Below, one piece after another: positions 40 through 39,975 of a DNA stretch of 41,906 nucleotides (position 1 is its first letter; each line of letters begins with the position of its first letter). The stretch lies in the sequence record MN850624.1; one strand, 5' to 3'. The position numbers and the translations under genes are program-made. The notes under the pieces were generated by a model that saw only the letters and a program-made list of their open reading frames with translations, did no database searches and was not told the origin of the DNA. This DNA comes from Escherichia phage usur.

Positions 40-576
40 CTACAGCGTCGCACAGTAAGCGCTACAGCGTTTTGCACGAGCAACCAAGGCATCCCTATAG
101 CGAACGACTGTCGGGGCTTTAGAAGCCTTTAGGAACGCAATACGAAGGTCACAGACGGCTGCTGCTGCGGCGTGAGGTTCCAGACGTTGTGCTGCTTCCA
201 AGGTGACAGTACCAATATCCCCGTCCTGTGCAACGCCGCATACCCGCTGTAGAGCTTTCGCAGCACGGGAGATGCCGGAGTTGACGCCGTAGTCAAACAC
301 GGCACATGCAATCGCAGGGTGAAGCTCGTCACCTCTGATGGGGCTGTAGTAGTCCCGGCGATAGATTGCTTCGGCTTGCTCTTTGGTGAGCTGTTTAATA
401 GGCACGCACACAGTGCCGCCAAGCCCAGTAGGGACACCACAAGCTCTGCCATCCAGCTTCCCATCACGAGCGTCACTAATTCCATGGTTGGTTTCCCCTC
501 CAGTGTCACCGGGCAGCTTGGTGTACCCACCCTCGGCCAGCCCGGTGAACTTCATACAGATTTCAAAGTTAGTCAT
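40..576 (-). CDS. endolysin, GH108-like lysozyme domain plus peptidoglycan-binding domain
   Basis: N-terminal 'GLAEGGYTKLPGDTGGETNHGIS' matches the GH108 signature (EGGY...D.GG.T..GI); C-terminal 'DGDIGTVTLEAA' resembles a PG_binding_3 motif. Last gene of the phage, the usual position in phiKMV-like genomes. No signal peptide or SAR helix seen. Confidence 0.7.
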   Translation of the reverse strand: MTNFEICMKFTGLAEGGYTKLPGDTGGETNHGISDARDGKLDGRACGVPTGLGGTVCVPIKQLTKEQAEAIYRRDYYSPIRGDELHPAIACAVFDYGVNSGISRAAKALQRVCGVAQDGDIGTVTLEAAQRLEPHAAAAAVCDLRIAFLKASKAPTVVRYRDALVARAKRCSAYCATL

Positions 577-959
577 TACATCCCCACAATCGTTGTGATA
601 AAGGACTGGAGCGCCGTGAGGTCGCCAGCCTTGACCGCAAGATAGATACCGCTAACGAGTGAAGCGGTCAGGAGACACCACTTGACGGCGTGAGCCGCGT
701 AAGAGAACAGCTTACCGATGTGGCTCATAGTCTTTTGAATGTCCTGAATTTGCTCGACGACACGGAGCTGCTGCTGAATCTCCAGCCACCGGGAGTCGTT
801 CTCCGATAGCTTGGCCAGCATAGCAGCATCACCTTTCTCAAGGTTGGCGATTTGAATCTCGTGTTTGTCGAGGCGAGTTTCTACGGATTGCATACGAGCC
901 TCCACAGCGCCCATACGCGAGTGGATGTTAGGAGTTGGCTCCTTCTTTGCTTCCGTCAT
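576..959 (-). CDS. membrane protein with N-terminal coiled-coil and C-terminal TM helix; possible holin/antiholin
   Basis: 127 aa ORF; heptad-like polar N-terminus, hydrophobic stretch 'VKWCLLTASLVSGIYLAV' near the C-terminus. Sits between the lipoprotein gene and the endolysin. True start may be the internal Met (MGAVEARMQ...). Confidence 0.35.
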   Translation of the reverse strand: MTEAKKEPTPNIHSRMGAVEARMQSVETRLDKHEIQIANLEKGDAAMLAKLSENDSRWLEIQQQLRVVEQIQDIQKTMSHIGKLFSYAAHAVKWCLLTASLVSGIYLAVKAGDLTALQSFITTIVGM

Positions 960-1416
960 CTTTCACCTTCTTCTTCCACGGAGATGGTACAAACCACATC
1001 ACCAGACCTAAGATACAAGTAAGGCCCATGCCAAATGCCCACAGGAGACTGCGTGGGTCGCTCTGAGAGACCACGATAGTCTTAGCCTGCACGTTTCCAT
1101 TGGTAATCTGCGAACCCTGCTTAGAAGCGTTTACAGAGCCTCCTGTGACGTCCTTCACAGTCGTCGAATCACTACCCTGTTTAGCGGTATCCACTTGCGC
1201 GTTACCAGATACGTCACCGACCTTCGTTTCGTCGGACTGTTTCGCAGTCAAGCCGATGCCCTGTTTCGTGTTCTCTGCGCCAACCTGTGCCGTTAGTTCC
1301 GGCTTATTGGGAGAGACAGCCGAGGTTACAGCAGACAGTGCGCTTGTTGCGGAGCAGCCCGTCAAAGTCAAGGACAGTGACAGGACTGCCCCGGCCATAA
1401 GCCGAGACAGTTTCAT
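928..1416 (-). CDS. outer-membrane lipoprotein with C-terminal TM anchor; candidate unimolecular spanin
   Basis: N-terminus 'MKLSRLMAGAVLSLSLTLTGCSA' is a signal peptide with lipobox (LTGC); C-terminus 'LLWAFGMGLTCILGLVMWFVPSPWKKKVK' is a TM helix followed by a basic stretch; the middle is Thr/Ser/Gln/Lys-rich. Located in the lysis cassette. Confidence 0.5.
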   Translation of the reverse strand: MKLSRLMAGAVLSLSLTLTGCSATSALSAVTSAVSPNKPELTAQVGAENTKQGIGLTAKQSDETKVGDVSGNAQVDTAKQGSDSTTVKDVTGGSVNASKQGSQITNGNVQAKTIVVSQSDPRSLLWAFGMGLTCILGLVMWFVPSPWKKKVKDDGSKEGANS

Positions 1417-1425
1417 ATTGACCCC

Positions 1426-1611
1426 TTAGTTGGTCAGCGCAGTGAGCGCGTTGGACACACGAGTGACATACGCCTGATACGCCGCCACCAGCGTGGTGTT
1501 GGTGGTGTCGAAGAAGTAGTCCTCAGTCCACACGTTCAGGTACTTAGCCGCCATATTACAGGCTGCCACGAACTCTGCGCGTTCGGCTGCGGTAGAATCT
1601 ACAAGTGCCAT
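1426..1611 (-). CDS. hypothetical protein
   Basis: 61 aa ORF in gene-strand orientation, packed between neighbours; no TM segment. Confidence 0.35.
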   Translation of the reverse strand: MALVDSTAAERAEFVAACNMAAKYLNVWTEDYFFDTTNTTLVAAYQAYVTRVSNALTALTN

Positions 1612-1622
1612 AAAGACTCCTA

Positions 1623-2303
1623 TTAAGAGAGGGTAATGCCAGTGATTGCACCAGCGGAAACAGCGAAGGTCACGGTGTTGGTGTACGTGCCAGTGACCGG
1701 GATTGCCAGTGCATCACCGTTATCCACCATAGCCACAGTAGCGGCGAGGTTGAAGCCGGAGAGAGCACCGTTGCTTGCCACGACAGCGGTGGCGTTGTGG
1801 CCATCAGCGCCAGCAGAGTTACGGACGGAATAAGCCGTACCGTTAACCACTGCATCAGCGTTGGCCGGGAGCCGCACGTTGCTCAGCAGACCATCAGCTA
1901 CACGGGCCGTAGCGGTGGTGATGCCGAGGATAGAGCCGTCGAAGCGACGAATCTCAGTTGCGTCAGTGTGGTCTACCAGAGCTGCGGTAGACAGGACGAG
2001 CTGCACGTTATCCAGCGTGGTGCCAGTAACGTTGGCGGTGGCATTGTGCGCGTCGTTGCCTGCGGAGTTGACCACAGATACAGTAGCGCCGTCAGCCAGC
2101 AGAGCGGAACCTTCCGGCGTACCAGCATAGCCAGCCGCCTCAAGTGCCGCCACCAGATTGGTGATAGCCGTTTCAATGTCAGCAGCCTGAGCTGCCGTCA
2201 CTGCACGGGTGTCATTGATGAAGCGCTGAGTCTCGTTAGCTGCGATACCGCAGCGATAACCAAGCTCATACCGCTGAGCATCAGTGATGGTGATGATGGA
2301 CAT
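1623..2303 (-). CDS. hypothetical protein with internal tandem repeat; possible minor virion/fibre protein
   Basis: 226 aa, rich in A/T/V/N/G/S; two related segments ('VSVVNSAGNDAHNATANVTG' and 'YSVRNSAGADGHNATAVVAS'). Start abuts the stop region of the terminase large subunit. Confidence 0.45.
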   Translation of the reverse strand: MSIITITDAQRYELGYRCGIAANETQRFINDTRAVTAAQAADIETAITNLVAALEAAGYAGTPEGSALLADGATVSVVNSAGNDAHNATANVTGTTLDNVQLVLSTAALVDHTDATEIRRFDGSILGITTATARVADGLLSNVRLPANADAVVNGTAYSVRNSAGADGHNATAVVASNGALSGFNLAATVAMVDNGDALAIPVTGTYTNTVTFAVSAGAITGITLS

Positions 2304-4063
2304 TATCTAATTCTCCGTCGCGTACCGCGTACAGGCTTGTGGCTGCGCCATTTCGGGTCATCGTACCCCATAGGGTTGGCGATGAACTCTTTGGCCACAG
2401 CGACTGCACGGCGCTCCGCTTCTTCGTTTTCGTCTTGCTGCAACACCTCGGCGTGGAGGTACACGGCAGCGGCTAAGGTTTCAATTCGGTCATCGTGTGG
2501 GATGGATTGACGGTCTTGAGTCAGGTTCTGGAGCTGCCAGAACAGGCTGTACTCACGGCCACCGTTGGCCATACCCCGGCATAACCGCAGGTCTTCTTCA
2601 ACAACGCTCCAGTGGATAACCACACGGTGGCGCTGCATGATTGGGCCGAGGCGGTTGATGATACGCACCTCTTTCTGGCCGGACGAGTACACACCCTCGC
2701 AGCCCATGGTCAGCTTCTGCCGCTTAATCTCACCTCGGTACATGTTGGTCACGGTGCCGTGGCCCATGTTGTCCTCAATGACGAGACGTTTGCAGCCCAA
2801 CTCACCTAACCACGACACCGCCGTCTGGATGTTTTCCTCCGTCTGGCCGCCGTGGTAGACGTGCATACCAAGGACGTGGATAAACGGGCCGATAGAAGCG
2901 GTGACGATGATAACTGATTCATCCGACCCACCACCAGCAGGGTCAAGAAACGCCGAGGCATTTTCGAATGGTACATAAGTGTCCGAGAAATCAGCAGCCA
3001 AGAATAGCTGCGCACGAGCGAGTGGGAAATCCAGTGGCAGCTCGGCGGCGTGCCGTGGGTGATTCGACCAATGCAAGACTTCCGGCGCGGAGATAGGCGA
3101 GCCGTGGAAGAAGATTAAGTCCTTGAGATGCAAGGTCTGTTTGAGAGCATCCGACAGAGAAGTGTCCAGCATGAACTGCAACTGGAAGCCTGCCTGCTGG
3201 TAGTCTCGTTCGTTCTGCAACTGCTTTTCTTCGGAGTAGCGTTGCGGGTCGGTCTGCGCACCACGGTTCCCAAGGATACCGTAGCCTGTGCGAAGTTCCG
3301 GGTGGCCCTCCATCTTCTGCTTAATCCACGGGGCCAGACAGCCGCCGTAGCGTTCTTCTTCCTCAACCGTTGGGAAACGACCGGGCCAGATGCGAACGTC
3401 GAAGCCACGCTGCGGGAGCGTGTTGTAGATGGAGTCCTGAGTCTGTGGCGTGCCGAGGTACAGAATCTCTGCACCATCGTTGGCGATAGCCGCGAACTCT
3501 TTGGTCAGGGTGTTGATACGGGCGCGGTTGGCAGGAGAGCTACCGTTACTGGTAGTCTCCACGTCATCGGCAATCAACAGCGATACGTGGTTCCCCTGCA
3601 ACTGGCCGAAGATACCGACCGCTTTTACAGAGGGTTGTTTGTCAGGGATACGGAATGCGTGATGCACGTCGAAGCCATCGGTGTACGATGTACGTGCGCC
3701 AGCGCGAGTCTCCGGGCGTAACCATTCCAACCTGTCCCATTGCATGATAGCCGACACGATAGCGTGCGACAGCGTACCAGCATAGTCGTCGGAACCGGAT
3801 ACGAGCAGGACAGTGGCGTTCGGCATCTGCACAAATTCGTACAGAGCACGGGCAATGCCGATGGTGGACTTAGCCTCACCACGCTGCGCCATGACGCACT
3901 TGTTCTTGAGCGTCCGGTCGGCCATGTAGCGGCCAATGTCGAGCTGCATTTCAGTGAGGTCAAAGCCCAGCCATGCGAAGTAGTCATGCAGGAACAGCGG
4001 GAAGTTGTTCTCGTAGTGAGCGCGAACGATTCCTGCCATCACCATGCGGCGTTGTAAATCCAT
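2303..4063 (-). CDS. terminase large subunit (DNA maturase B)
   Basis: 586 aa, the same length class as T7 gp19; position after the small subunit and tailspike as in phiKMV-like phages. Confidence 0.85.
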   Translation of the reverse strand: MDLQRRMVMAGIVRAHYENNFPLFLHDYFAWLGFDLTEMQLDIGRYMADRTLKNKCVMAQRGEAKSTIGIARALYEFVQMPNATVLLVSGSDDYAGTLSHAIVSAIMQWDRLEWLRPETRAGARTSYTDGFDVHHAFRIPDKQPSVKAVGIFGQLQGNHVSLLIADDVETTSNGSSPANRARINTLTKEFAAIANDGAEILYLGTPQTQDSIYNTLPQRGFDVRIWPGRFPTVEEEERYGGCLAPWIKQKMEGHPELRTGYGILGNRGAQTDPQRYSEEKQLQNERDYQQAGFQLQFMLDTSLSDALKQTLHLKDLIFFHGSPISAPEVLHWSNHPRHAAELPLDFPLARAQLFLAADFSDTYVPFENASAFLDPAGGGSDESVIIVTASIGPFIHVLGMHVYHGGQTEENIQTAVSWLGELGCKRLVIEDNMGHGTVTNMYRGEIKRQKLTMGCEGVYSSGQKEVRIINRLGPIMQRHRVVIHWSVVEEDLRLCRGMANGGREYSLFWQLQNLTQDRQSIPHDDRIETLAAAVYLHAEVLQQDENEEAERRAVAVAKEFIANPMGYDDPKWRSHKPVRGTRRRIR

Positions 4064-4368
4064 TAGTGCATCATCCCGCTATCTTCTGCGATTGAGTTGA
4101 TGGCAGCAGTCATGATATCCTTACGGCCAGCCTCGGTCTTCTCGTTGTTGAGCTGTTCTTGCAGCGCGAGCAGGTCGTCGGCGTGGTCTTTATCAGCCTG
4201 AATGCCGTTGTCTTTCAGGAACTGGCGAAGCACAGACAGCTCAGCCGCCGCCATAGGTTCGATGATATTACCGTTCTCATCTTTTCTACGTGCGTCGGCC
4301 AAGCGGTCGGACAGATACTCCACCAGCATCCGGTGCAGCCCGTCGAGCTGCTTGTTCACGGATGCCAT
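4063..4368 (-). CDS. terminase small subunit (DNA maturase A)
   Basis: 101 aa charged helical protein immediately upstream of and overlapping the large-subunit start. Confidence 0.6.
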   Translation of the reverse strand: MASVNKQLDGLHRMLVEYLSDRLADARRKDENGNIIEPMAAAELSVLRQFLKDNGIQADKDHADDLLALQEQLNNEKTEAGRKDIMTAAINSIAEDSGMMH

Positions 4369-34359: not shown

Positions 34360-34796
34360 TCGTTATCCCAGTCCGGTATGTACTGAATCTTCTTCTTCAT
34401 CTTCACGCTGGCTACAACTTGTAGCACACGGACAGTACCACCGTGGCGCTCTGCCAGACGCTCAGCTTCATCCCGCGCTTCACGTTCAGTGATGTGCTCA
34501 ATCTTCGGCGGCGTGCTGCCACCCTCAAGCAGACACATGAACCGACCGCGCTTCTGCGCCGGGGTACTGACCAGACTGGTGTTGTCCTCCAGCCAATCAG
34601 ATTTGTAGTGGCTGATATCCGGCTGCGCATTCAAGCGCTCACCAATCCAGCTCACGATGTAACGAGTCTCCCCGCTGCGCTCCCACGCTCGGCGGTCAGG
34701 GTTAACCCATGCGATGATACCCAGCTTACCCGACCGGGTGCCAGTGCCATCGTCGCCTACGATTTCATCCCCGACTTTGTACTTTGGCTTTACCAT
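34356..34796 (-). CDS. hypothetical protein
   Basis: 146 aa, tightly packed in the operon. Confidence 0.5.
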   Translation of the reverse strand: MVKPKYKVGDEIVGDDGTGTRSGKLGIIAWVNPDRRAWERSGETRYIVSWIGERLNAQPDISHYKSDWLEDNTSLVSTPAQKRGRFMCLLEGGSTPPKIEHITEREARDEAERLAERHGGTVRVLQVVASVKMKKKIQYIPDWDNE

Positions 34797-34990
34797 TTAA
34801 TCCACCCCTTACTCCAGCCAATGTCAATGCACTTGGACATGCCAACTGCGCCAACAACAAAGCCCAGCAGCGTACCAATTACAGAGGTAAGCTGTTCTCC
34901 AATGTAAGGCTGAATAAGATAGGCAACACCTACCCACAACGCGCCCCACAATATAACGACGACTACGAATAACATTAATACTCGGAACAT
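34790..34990 (-). CDS. small membrane protein (two TM helices)
   Basis: 66 aa, 'MFRVLMLFVVVVILWGALWVGVAYLI...'; strong RBS GGAGGAAAT before the ATG; first gene after the promoter-like element at 35008-35025. Confidence 0.5.
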   Translation of the reverse strand: MFRVLMLFVVVVILWGALWVGVAYLIQPYIGEQLTSVIGTLLGFVVGAVGMSKCIDIGWSKGWIKW

Positions 34991-37408: not shown

Positions 37409-37723
37409 TCACGTTAGGTTGATGTTATGACCGTTGATTGAGAGAGTCACGATGGTGGTCACGCCATCATGCTCCAGCTTTTCTTTCAGGTGTGGCAGCA
37501 CATCCTCACACTCACCAACGTAGGCCAGTGTGCTGACAGTGCCGCCTTTGCGTAGGTCAATGACGCAAGCAGAGTACACCTGTCCATCAGGTGCGCCCAG
37601 CGGTACGTCATACGCATCCAAATGCACCTTCTCCACAGTGGCTGCCAGTGCCACATGCACGGTGCTGAGATACAGGGTGGCCAGCATCAACAGCACGAAC
37701 AGATATCCTTTGCTTACCTTCAT
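37409..37723 (-). CDS. secreted/periplasmic early protein (Sec signal peptide)
   Basis: N-terminus 'MKVSKGYLFVLLMLATLYLSTVHVALAAT' has n-, h- and c-regions with an A-L-A cleavage motif; mature part ~75 aa with two Cys. Confidence 0.55.
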   Translation of the reverse strand: MKVSKGYLFVLLMLATLYLSTVHVALAATVEKVHLDAYDVPLGAPDGQVYSACVIDLRKGGTVSTLAYVGECEDVLPHLKEKLEHDGVTTIVTLSINGHNINLT

Positions 37724-38129: not shown

Positions 38130-38303
38130 TTACAACTTCCACAACCATAGCAGGTTGGTGCTGATACCAACGGCTATTGCTGCGGTGGTTGGCAGGAAAT
38201 AAGCAGCAGCCAGTCCAGCGCTTATGCTTACCTTAAGGATGATGGCCGTCTCCCAGTGCCGACGCTCCATACCCTTGACCCGTTGTAACAGATTAATGTT
38301 CAT
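38130..38303 (-). CDS. possible small membrane protein (57 aa, not in ORF track)
   Basis: Hand translation: MNINLLQRVKGMERRHWETAIILKVSISAGLAAAYFLPTTAAIAVGISTNLLWLWKL; hydrophobic C-terminal two-thirds. Lies in an otherwise unassigned 390-bp gap. Confidence 0.3.
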   Translation of the reverse strand: MNINLLQRVKGMERRHWETAIILKVSISAGLAAAYFLPTTAAIAVGISTNLLWLWKL

Positions 38304-39753: not shown

Positions 39754-39975
39754 GATACACCTCGTCGGGTTGTTGGTTGGTTACTTCACAATGCGCCTCG
39801 CAAGACGCATTAGGCAGTCACCATAATTTGGGACGAGTCAACCAGTAAATCCACAAGCCTGCAAAGACAAACCAGAACAACGCTACCAGTAAGTCCCACA
39901 TATCAGGCTCGCTTAGACAGGCGCTGGTCAATCAGCCAGCACGCCGCCGCTATCACACAGAGTGCAGTGAACATA

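Follow-up and report, generated by a model that had tools for sequence, protein, structure and literature searches.

The lysis cassette of Escherichia phage usur, a Bonnellvirus, raises two linked questions: which protein acts as the spanin of this T7-like phage, and which one serves as its holin. A preliminary description of this DNA had proposed that a 162-aa lipoprotein replaces the usual Rz/Rz1 pair as a unimolecular spanin (u-spanin), and had considered the neighbouring 127-aa coiled-coil protein atypical for a holin. Both proteins were analysed within the window, the whole 41,906-nt stretch of sequence record MN850624.1. This late cassette occupies positions 40–1416 on the minus strand in the order u-spanin, holin candidate and endolysin, and its three genes overlap or abut. 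The features discussed below are as follows, with the evidence for each in parentheses.

1422..1427, minus strand: Shine-Dalgarno-like AAGGGG lying 5 nt before the ATG of the u-spanin gene (read from the sequence)
928..1416, minus strand: gene usur_3 (QHR72930.1), 162 aa, very probable u-spanin of the T1 gp11 family (ORF with ATG; phrog_1804; BLASTP to T1 gp11; sequence exactly that of usur_3)
1354..1416, minus strand: predicted lipoprotein signal peptide, residues 1–21, with lipobox LTGC (Cys21) (regular expression and hydropathy)
1261..1290, minus strand: family signature AQVGAENTKQ, residues 43–52 (alignments of homologues)
1069..1254, minus strand: periplasmic 20-residue KQ-periodic modules, residues 55–116 (KQ spacing, self-alignment, indel pattern)
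982..1056, minus strand: C-terminal transmembrane (TM) domain, residues ~121–145 (Kyte-Doolittle, AlphaFold)
931..981, minus strand: basic cytoplasmic tail PSPWKKKVKDDGSKEGANS of the u-spanin (sequence)
928..959, minus strand: 32 nt shared by the 3' end of the u-spanin gene and the 5' end of the 127-aa gene (ORF coordinates)
576..959, minus strand: gene usur_2, 127-aa protein with coiled coil and C-terminal TM helix, proposed holin (phrog_35530, "unknown function"; AlphaFold; family profile and genomic contexts)
899..903, minus strand: GGAGG upstream of internal Met23 (ATG 891–893) of the 127-aa gene (sequence)
633..704, minus strand: Ser/Thr/Gly-rich TM segment of the 127-aa protein, residues ~86–109 (hydropathy; conserved hydrophobic block in alignment A5)
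579..632, minus strand: conserved K-x-G-D turn, in which G112 and D113 are invariant, followed by a short hydrophobic helix at the C-terminus of the 127-aa protein, residues 110–127 (alignment A5; AlphaFold helix 114–126)
40..576, minus strand: soluble GH108 endolysin with a PG_binding_3 domain (PF05838, E 6e-22; phrog_315, endolysin)

The spanin gene and its family

The topology reported in the preliminary description, an LTGC lipobox at the N-terminus of the 162-aa ORF and a C-terminal TM helix followed by KKKVK, was recovered in our analysis. The lipobox (residues 18–21) is preceded by a basic n-region (K2, R5) and a hydrophobic h-region, and Cys21 is followed by Ser-Ala at positions +2/+3, with the Asp inner-membrane retention signal absent. 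Outside the signal peptide, the only strong hydrophobic windows start at residues 121–128 (Kyte-Doolittle, 19-residue window; maximum of 2.01 at residue 125). This segment coincides with the AlphaFold helix 121–142, the sole region of the model with a pLDDT above 70, and leads into W-KKKVK. The final 29 coding nucleotides of the tail (931–959) and the stop codon (928–930) overlap the 127-aa gene. The protein contains two cysteines, Cys21 of the lipobox and Cys134 inside the TM helix, and none in the periplasmic domain.

Both membrane anchors are conserved in 24 diverse homologues. L18, G20 and C21 are invariant in a six-phage alignment (A1), while among the 24 homologues L18 and C21 show no variation and G20 almost none, and the C-terminal hydrophobic block is kept throughout. 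The signature AQVGAENTKQ is invariant in usur, J8-65, LIMEzero, CB5, myPSH1235 and T1, representing five genera, and largely invariant among the 24 homologues.

Homology as well as topology bore out the earlier u-spanin reading. The usur protein matches phrog_1804, "Rz-like spanin" (E 2.1e-37; residues 7–151 against profile positions 4–134 of 136), as does T1 gp11 (E 9.7e-45), both proteins end to end. Other spanin PHROGs gave insignificant matches (E >0.1), and no matching model was found in Pfam or NCBIfam. In BLASTP, the usur protein and T1 gp11 share a modest 36% identity over 141 columns (E 5e-16). From these sequence comparisons, the 162-aa protein is very probably a unimolecular spanin of the T1 gp11 family.

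The preliminary description also implied that such a protein would be surprising in a T7-like phage, and this part did not hold. There is nothing unusual about a u-spanin in a T7-like phage: homologues occur in 361 phage records, mostly of Autographiviridae (Klebsiella and Pectobacterium phages). Several genera of that family carry it: u-spanins of the T1 gp11 type are standard in Drulisvirus/KP34-like phages, Phimunavirus, LIMElight, Waewaevirus/LIMEzero and Bonnellvirus. The ortholog in J8-65, the Bonnellvirus type species (PI28_gp45, YP_009101394.1), is 90.8% identical, falls in the same 90% cluster as the usur protein and is named "Rz-like spanin" in RefSeq, whereas usur_3 is labelled "hypothetical protein" in GenBank. 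Among the 28 u-spanins that Table 5 of Kongari et al. 2018 (PMC6139136) assigns to the T1 gp11 family are those of J8-65 and LIMEzero, which the paper describes as unusually long and as the sole family members without pinholin and SAR endolysin partners. The same study reports that T1 gene 11 complements a lambda Rz/Rz1 defect, this complementation and the need for the lipobox Cys having been shown for T1 gp11 only, and that none of 58 u-spanins has a periplasmic cysteine. The usur u-spanin is thus already known, its ortholog having been catalogued for Bonnellvirus in 2018.

The genomic setting is also conserved. The GH108 endolysin lies two genes downstream of the u-spanin, and in LIMEzero, CB5 and myPSH1235 TerL is likewise followed further on by a small gene, the u-spanin gene, a gene for a small membrane protein and the endolysin gene, in that order. 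A location in the lysis cassette beside holin and endolysin is also found in four other genera.

A scan for an n-region, h-region and lipobox across the whole window, in six frames and with internal starts, found no embedded or adjacent Rz1-like lipoprotein ORF, and the u-spanin ORF was the sole match in or near the lysis genes. No second lipobox ORF occurs in any frame of 576–1416 or nearby, in agreement with the earlier proposal that an Rz/Rz1 pair is lacking. As a positive control, the scan was applied to five related loci, where each time the u-spanin was the one ORF recovered. The only coiled-coil protein of the cassette, the 127-aa protein, carries its TM helix C-terminally, not N-terminally as an i-spanin does.

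Two other readings of the lipoprotein were weighed against these results. It could be the o-spanin of a two-component system with the 127-aa protein as an Rz-like i-spanin, a reading that draws on the long coiled coil shared with Rz, on the 32-nt overlap between the two genes, and on the names "Rz1A" or "Rz1-like" given to the lipoprotein in some databases. The 127-aa protein, however, has neither an N-terminal signal nor an N-terminal TM helix; its sole TM segment is C-terminal, which should leave the coiled coil in the cytoplasm, contrary to the arrangement in Rz. It was rejected as an i-spanin on this topology. The lipoprotein, moreover, itself bears an inner-membrane anchor, and its homologue T1 gp11 acts alone; relatives with the same u-spanin hold an 83–89-aa pinholin in the middle slot, and the 127-aa family also occurs without a neighbouring lipoprotein gene. 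We regard a two-component spanin as extremely improbable. Scarcely more credible is a role outside lysis, whether in superinfection exclusion or receptor blocking (of the T5 Llp or Cor type) or as a virion-associated protein. Exclusion roles are possible for small phage lipoproteins, and the GenBank annotation is merely hypothetical, but the homologous T1 gp11 has been validated experimentally and the late position beside the endolysin is kept in five genera. The two anchors are moreover conserved, and an outer-membrane exclusion lipoprotein would not need the second.

The periplasmic domain of the u-spanin

The periplasmic region of the usur u-spanin appears to be built from modules of about 20 residues. 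The KQ spacing in these modules is 20/20, and the self-alignment score of 42, against a shuffle mean of 26.6, was reached by 20 of 2000 shuffles, which gives modest support for a repeat. A module of ~20 residues present in usur is missing from the T1, KP34-type and CB5 proteins (indels in alignments A1 and A4), while the LIMEzero protein has one further module of 21 residues. Judged from these alignments, the copy number of the module would explain the length classes of 129, 162 and 188 aa in the T1 gp11 family. The repeat is visible at the protein level only; Tandem Repeats Finder detected no DNA tandem repeats over 900–1450.

The AlphaFold model of the u-spanin, based on a 24-sequence alignment, is of low confidence (mean pLDDT 50.8). 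Apart from the C-terminal helix it contains a short helix at residues 24–30, the remainder being of low confidence (pLDDT ~45) with no beta strands, so that it does not confirm the beta-rich fold reported for the family. In the supplement to Kongari et al. 2018 (PMC6139136), the J8-65 periplasmic domain is given as 102 residues, and the next two columns, displayed there without headers, were taken to mean 15 helical and 35 beta residues. Profile searches of the PDB found no relatives of the u-spanin or of the 127-aa protein among solved structures.

The 127-aa protein as holin candidate

The fresh lead at this locus is the 127-aa neighbour only, and not the u-spanin. The AlphaFold model of this protein, computed from the single sequence (pLDDT 86.9), consists of a continuous helix (12–111) and a short helix (114–126). 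Its sole hydrophobic window starts at residues 91–94, corresponding to one TM segment. The LIMEzero homologue is 53% identical, and the homologues of both J8-65 and LIMEzero are annotated from the Met that corresponds to Met23. From the sequence, this Met may be a second start, yielding the protein in two forms, from Met1 and from Met23. Translational coupling of the u-spanin and 127-aa genes through their overlap is likely, and analogous overlaps between the spanin and the next gene measure 41 nt in LIMEzero, 11 nt in CB5, 8 nt in myPSH1235, and 83 and 8 nt at the loci L012 and L013, respectively.

The preliminary description had called this protein atypical for a holin. As an account of a coiled coil with a C-terminal TM helix this is fair, and a holin with one TM helix and ~85 residues in the cytoplasm would indeed be unusual. 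However, its position, its linkage to a soluble endolysin and its standing as the only other membrane protein of the late region point to a holin. Besides the u-spanin, no other TM protein is encoded in the late region, and the stop codon of the 127-aa gene overlaps the ATG of the endolysin (TAATG). The usur endolysin has no SAR or signal sequence (N-terminal Kyte-Doolittle 17-residue maximum of 0.29).

This association extends beyond usur. Remote relatives of the 127-aa protein, detected with a profile at 22–30% identity, always lie directly upstream of a PF00959 endolysin, a different family from that of usur, and a u-spanin is located upstream in two of them and absent in two. All endolysins adjoining the 127-aa family lack an N-terminal hydrophobic segment (Kyte-Doolittle 17-residue maximum ≤0.97), whereas a SAR-like segment (1.54–1.77) is present in the endolysins beside the 83–89-aa pinholins (CB5, myPSH1235) and in T1 gp12, which lies beside the 71-aa holin gp13. 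This correlation between the type of middle gene and the endolysin N-terminus covers eight loci.

The 127-aa protein has no significant match to a named holin family in Pfam, PHROGs or NCBIfam, and does not align with the CB5, KP34-type or T1 holins. Matches to XhlA (PF10779) were obtained for 5 of 10 family members, but they are weak, remain below the Pfam threshold (E 0.0019–0.006) and involve the coiled-coil part only, a region that also attracts partial profile-search matches to dozens of generic coiled-coil families. A search of the Kongari et al. supplements by accession and locus tag found no holin for J8-65 or LIMEzero. Bonnellvirus papers mention the endolysin alone.

An alternative keeps the u-spanin assignment but gives the 127-aa protein another identity, as an antiholin, a regulator of lysis timing or some unrelated membrane protein, the true holin being another small TM ORF such as the 66-aa ORF at 34790–34990. 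The missing holin-family match and the atypical architecture leave room for this, as do further uncharacterised small TM ORFs at 37409–37723, 38130–38303 and 39818–39931. XhlA is also the sole related Pfam signal of the 127-aa protein, and XhlA works beside a separate holin in PBSX. These small ORFs, however, belong to the early/middle region, a long way from the endolysin gene, and have no PHROG match. The 127-aa family is repeatedly and tightly coupled, with stop/start overlap, to soluble endolysins of two unrelated families, and the metagenomic cassettes show no other TM protein adjoining the endolysin. A different holin is therefore possible but rather unlikely in our assessment, and the 127-aa protein is probably the unannotated, putative holin of the usur cassette.

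On balance, we also lean slightly towards a broader proposal, namely that the 127-aa protein (phrog_35530) and its remote relatives constitute an undescribed holin family of Gram-negative T7-like podophages. Its members would be tail-anchored, with a cytoplasmic coiled coil of ~85 residues, a Ser/Thr/Gly-rich TM helix, a K-x-G-D turn and a short hydrophobic C-terminal helix, possibly made in two forms (Met1 and Met23). This family would have displaced the pinholin wherever a soluble endolysin (GH108 or GH24) replaced a SAR endolysin.

Proposed lysis mechanism and comparison with known systems

By analogy with its family, usur_3 would be exported by Sec and lipidated at Cys21. Ser at residue +2 would let Lol sort the N-terminus of the protein to the outer membrane (inner leaflet), and its C-terminal helix would remain in the inner membrane. 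Being anchored in both membranes, the protein would therefore span the envelope with its periplasmic domain of ~100 residues, passing through the murein meshwork. The 127-aa protein, for which a tail-anchored, N-in topology with the coiled coil in the cytoplasm is predicted, would supply the holin function and release the soluble GH108 endolysin, in place of the pinholin/SAR-endolysin pair of the relatives. Destruction of the peptidoglycan by the endolysin would free the tethered usur_3 molecules to move and collapse. According to the current model, they would then fuse the inner and outer membranes and complete lysis, with no partner protein needed.

For annotation, usur_3 and most of its Bonnellvirus orthologs, now called "hypothetical" or, misleadingly, "Rz1A", can be renamed u-spanin. 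If the 127-aa protein is the holin, these phages offer a natural comparison in which the same u-spanin is paired either with a pinholin and a SAR endolysin or with a coiled-coil protein and a soluble endolysin. The large cytoplasmic domain of such a holin would moreover make it an unusual addition to the known architectures.

Compared with T1 gp11, the usur u-spanin shares the L-x-G-C lipobox, a non-Asp residue at +2, the AQVGAENTKQ signature, a short helix after the Cys, a periplasmic domain free of Cys, a C-terminal TM helix followed by basic residues, and a gene within the lysis cassette. Its greater length (162 against 133 aa) is due to one additional periplasmic module of 20 residues. The usur gene order is spanin-holin-endolysin, whereas that of T1 is holin-endolysin-spanin, and usur combines a soluble GH108 endolysin with a coiled-coil membrane protein where T1 has a SAR-type endolysin and a 71-aa holin.

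Among the closest systems are those of J8-65, with an orthologous u-spanin of 163 aa, the same gene neighbours and trivial differences, and Pantoea phage LIMEzero, whose ortholog (ORF53, 188 aa) is 67% identical and lies in the same cassette. KP34-like phages (Drulisvirus) and Phimunavirus resemble usur in that the cassette follows the large terminase and runs from the spanin through a small membrane protein to the endolysin; they also have a homologous u-spanin (34–51% identity), whose gene slightly overlaps the next. In contrast, their middle gene encodes an 83–89-aa holin/pinholin unrelated in sequence to the 127-aa protein (12–18% aligned identity), and their endolysin carries an N-terminal SAR-like segment that is absent from usur.

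Like lambda Rz/Rz1 and T7 18.5/18.7, the usur protein has a predicted outer-membrane lipoprotein anchor and presumably disrupts the outer membrane by linking both membranes. Unlike them, it carries both anchors in one polypeptide, has neither a periplasmic coiled coil nor a periplasmic Cys, and is accompanied by no embedded, overlapped or separate lipoprotein gene. Finally, the 127-aa protein resembles XhlA (PF10779) of the Bacillus PBSX-type lysis modules in being small, with an N-terminal coiled coil and one C-terminal TM helix, and in lying beside lysis genes. It differs in that its family comes from Gram-negative podophages and carries the K-x-G-D turn and C-terminal helix outside the XhlA match.

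The lysis region of phage usur

The complete usur genome (41,906 bp; MN850624) belongs to the genus Bonnellvirus of the Autographiviridae and carries all of its genes on the minus strand, including one for a T7-type RNA polymerase (PF00940, E 6e-83). Over its first 4.1 kb, identity is 99% to phage forsur and 85% to J8-65, the type species. The late genes are transcribed from right to left in the following order.

Late genes of usur, in order of transcription
4063-4368, minus: TerS
2303-4063, minus: TerL
1623-2303, minus: 226-aa gene
1426-1611, minus: 61-aa gene
928-1416, minus: 162-aa gene, usur_3 (QHR72930.1, exact match)
576-959, minus: 127-aa gene, usur_2 (QHR72929.1, exact match)
40-576, minus: GH108 endolysin, 178 aa

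The products of the 226-aa and 61-aa genes, which separate TerL from the spanin gene, have an N-terminal domain in common, and both match phrog_9732. A gene of 61-64 aa occupies the equivalent position in LIMEzero, CB5, myPSH1235 and the metagenomic contig L009.

A unimolecular spanin homologous to T1 gp11

The preliminary description had read usur_3 as a lipoprotein resembling a unimolecular spanin (u-spanin), and all the features it listed were observed in the sequence and hydropathy profile. A basic n-region and a hydrophobic h-region lead to the lipobox LTGC, whose Cys is residue 21 and is followed by Ser-Ala at positions +2/+3. The central part is hydrophilic and rich in Ser/Thr/Gly/Lys, and the one strong hydrophobic segment, starting at residues 121-128, precedes W-KKKVK. 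As the only two cysteines lie in the lipobox and the TM helix, the periplasmic part contains none. A good ribosome-binding site precedes the gene. Signal-plus-lipobox ORFs were sought in six frames across the whole window from every possible start codon. The usur_3 ORF was the sole match in or near the lysis genes, where the embedded Rz1-like lipoprotein ORF proposed for checking was thus not found; the remaining matches were short out-of-frame shadows within unrelated genes, mostly on the non-coding strand. Applied to five related control loci, the scanner returned exactly one ORF each, the u-spanin. The described features are therefore confirmed, and a chance pattern is ruled out.

Family searches matched usur_3 almost end to end to PHROG 1804 ('Rz-like spanin', E 2.1e-37), as they did T1 gp11 from NC_005833 (E 9.7e-45). 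Aligned directly, from lipobox to basic tail, the two proteins are 36% identical (E 5e-16). The proteins of six phages (usur, J8-65, LIMEzero, Pectobacterium CB5, Klebsiella myPSH1235 and T1) were also aligned. Invariant in all of them were the L-x-G-C lipobox and the motif AQVGAENTKQ, ten residues long; the C-terminal hydrophobic block was conserved, and the pattern was repeated in 24 diverse database homologues. Given the profile match, the direct alignment and the conserved lipobox and motif, usur_3 is, at the sequence level, related to T1 gp11 by homology beyond mere similar topology, and the u-spanin reading is correct.

By homology, usur_3 would be lipidated at Cys21 and, since its +2 residue is other than Asp, sorted to the outer membrane, while the C-terminal helix would keep it anchored in the inner membrane; once murein is degraded, it would disrupt the outer membrane. 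The current u-spanin model proposes disruption through inner-outer membrane fusion (PMC6139136). The fold on record for the T1 gp11 family is beta-rich. Apart from the two membrane helices, AlphaFold modelled only a short helix, residues 24-30, with any confidence (mean pLDDT 50.8), and a PDB profile search found no related solved structure.

The periplasmic domain (1069-1254, minus) displays a 20-residue periodicity with the marker (A/S)KQ, in the units TAKQSDETKVGDVSGNAQVD, TAKQGSDSTTVKDVTGGSVN and ASKQGSQITNGNVQAKTIVV. At the protein level, self-alignment scored modestly above shuffles (20 of 2000 reached the observed score); no tandem repeat was found in the gene at the DNA level. The u-spanins of 129-134 aa (CB5, KP34-type, T1) have one module fewer and that of LIMEzero (188 aa; locus L006, 1951-2517) one more. 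Module copy number thus accounts for the length of the LIMEzero and J8-65 proteins, which are described as 'unusually long' and also as the least similar to other family members (PMC6139136).

Prior records and distribution

The identification of usur_3 is a rediscovery of a catalogued u-spanin, in a genus already covered. The spanin database of Kongari et al. 2018 (PMC6139136) lists 28 members of the T1 gp11 family in its Table 5, including 'Limezero, J8-65', and its supplements give the J8-65 protein as a u-spanin of 163 aa with a periplasmic domain of 102 residues; usur_3 is 90.8% identical to it and shares its 90% cluster. A tblastn search brought up 361 phage records with homologues (235 of Klebsiella phages, 51 Pectobacterium, 37 Escherichia), the majority Autographiviridae and many labelled spanin or U-spanin. 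The KP34-like genus is defined in part by a 'spanin-holin-endolysin' cassette with a u-spanin (PMC4411677). What the preliminary description says of T7-supergroup phages, namely that Rz/Rz1 is their normal spanin, is true of T7 and phiKMV but not of u-spanin genera such as the KP34-like phages.

RefSeq labels the J8-65, Lidtsur and LIMEzero copies 'Rz-like spanin'. Names within the usur_3 cluster are inconsistent: beside that RefSeq label for J8-65 stand 'hypothetical protein' (GenBank usur, forsur, glasur, RZ4, Kc261), 'Rz1A protein' (UniProt), 'putative Rz1-like lysis protein' (smaasur) and 'protein-disulfide isomerase' (one IMG entry). In the metagenomic locus L012, a 167-aa u-spanin ORF (1170-1673; lipobox LWGC, ITAQVGKTNTKQ motif), overlapping the next gene by 83 nt, went unreported by the gene caller, exemplifying the spanin annotation problem.

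The 127-aa neighbour as a holin candidate

AlphaFold and hydropathy bore out the coiled coil with a C-terminal TM helix described for usur_2. The model comprises one helix (12-111), a turn and a short helix (114-126), with pLDDT 86.9; residues 1-85 form a hydrophilic coiled coil, and 86-109 are the sole TM-grade segment. With no N-terminal signal, the coiled coil should be cytoplasmic, the opposite side to that of an i-spanin. Two starts are available.

Putative starts of the usur_2 gene
957-959, minus: ATG of the long form (Met1), Shine-Dalgarno GGTG at 964-967
891-893, minus: internal ATG (Met23), Shine-Dalgarno GGAGG at 899-903

Conservation of residues 1-22 shows the long form, which begins at ATG 959, to be genuine. 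RefSeq annotates the J8-65 and LIMEzero homologues from Met23, a residue missing from the remote relatives; a dual-start arrangement or mis-annotated RefSeq starts are both possible from the sequences.

The protein belongs to phrog_35530, which has no function label, and resembles XhlA below threshold in the coiled-coil part only. A word-based search found it solely in bonnellvirus-like contigs and LIMEzero, and a profile search against 1.8 billion representative sequences recovered full-length relatives (22-30% identity) of the same architecture, in which the TM helix is followed by a K-x-G-D turn whose G-D is invariant across the family. The remote relatives lie on T7-like contigs, and in every case the gene stops where a PF00959 endolysin gene starts or overlaps that start; PF00959 is a different family from the GH108 of usur.

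Metagenomic loci with remote usur_2 relatives
L013: TerL, 134-aa u-spanin, usur_2-family member (1461-1868), lysozyme
L012: 167-aa u-spanin, usur_2-family member (1591-1974), lysozyme
L009-L011: TerL, 64-aa gene, usur_2-family member (L009 4001-4381), lysozyme
L015: TerL (C-terminal fragment), 98-aa gene, usur_2-family member (474-857), lysozyme

The lipobox scan found no lipoprotein gene near the relatives in L009-L011 and L015.

A soluble endolysin requires a hole-forming holin. All endolysins adjoining the usur_2 family are without an N-terminal hydrophobic segment (Kyte-Doolittle maximum over a 17-residue window, 0.0-0.97). Because of this requirement, and because usur_2 sits in the holin slot and is the sole other membrane protein of the late region, we consider it probably the holin of the cassette, with moderate confidence. 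The main alternative is that usur_2 acts as a lysis regulator, with the true holin encoded elsewhere. For a holin or membrane protein the genome offers only four other candidates, small ORFs of the early/middle region (34790-34990, 37409-37723, 38130-38303 and 39818-39931, minus) that contain strong hydrophobic segments and match no PHROG. A literature search on Bonnellvirus found no holin named for the genus. Together with its remote relatives, usur_2 forms a wider unannotated family, probably one of undescribed holins. The modest novelty lies in an unannotated holin candidate beside a known u-spanin.

Across these phages, the type of endolysin varies with the protein that fills the middle slot. 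In the endolysins of CB5 and myPSH1235, as in T1 gp12, a SAR-like segment lies at residue 7 (Kyte-Doolittle maximum 1.54-1.77); the former two adjoin a pinholin of 83-89 aa, and gp12 lies beside the 71-aa holin gp13. J8-65 and LIMEzero are the only T1 gp11-family members without the pairing of pinholin and SAR endolysin (PMC6139136).
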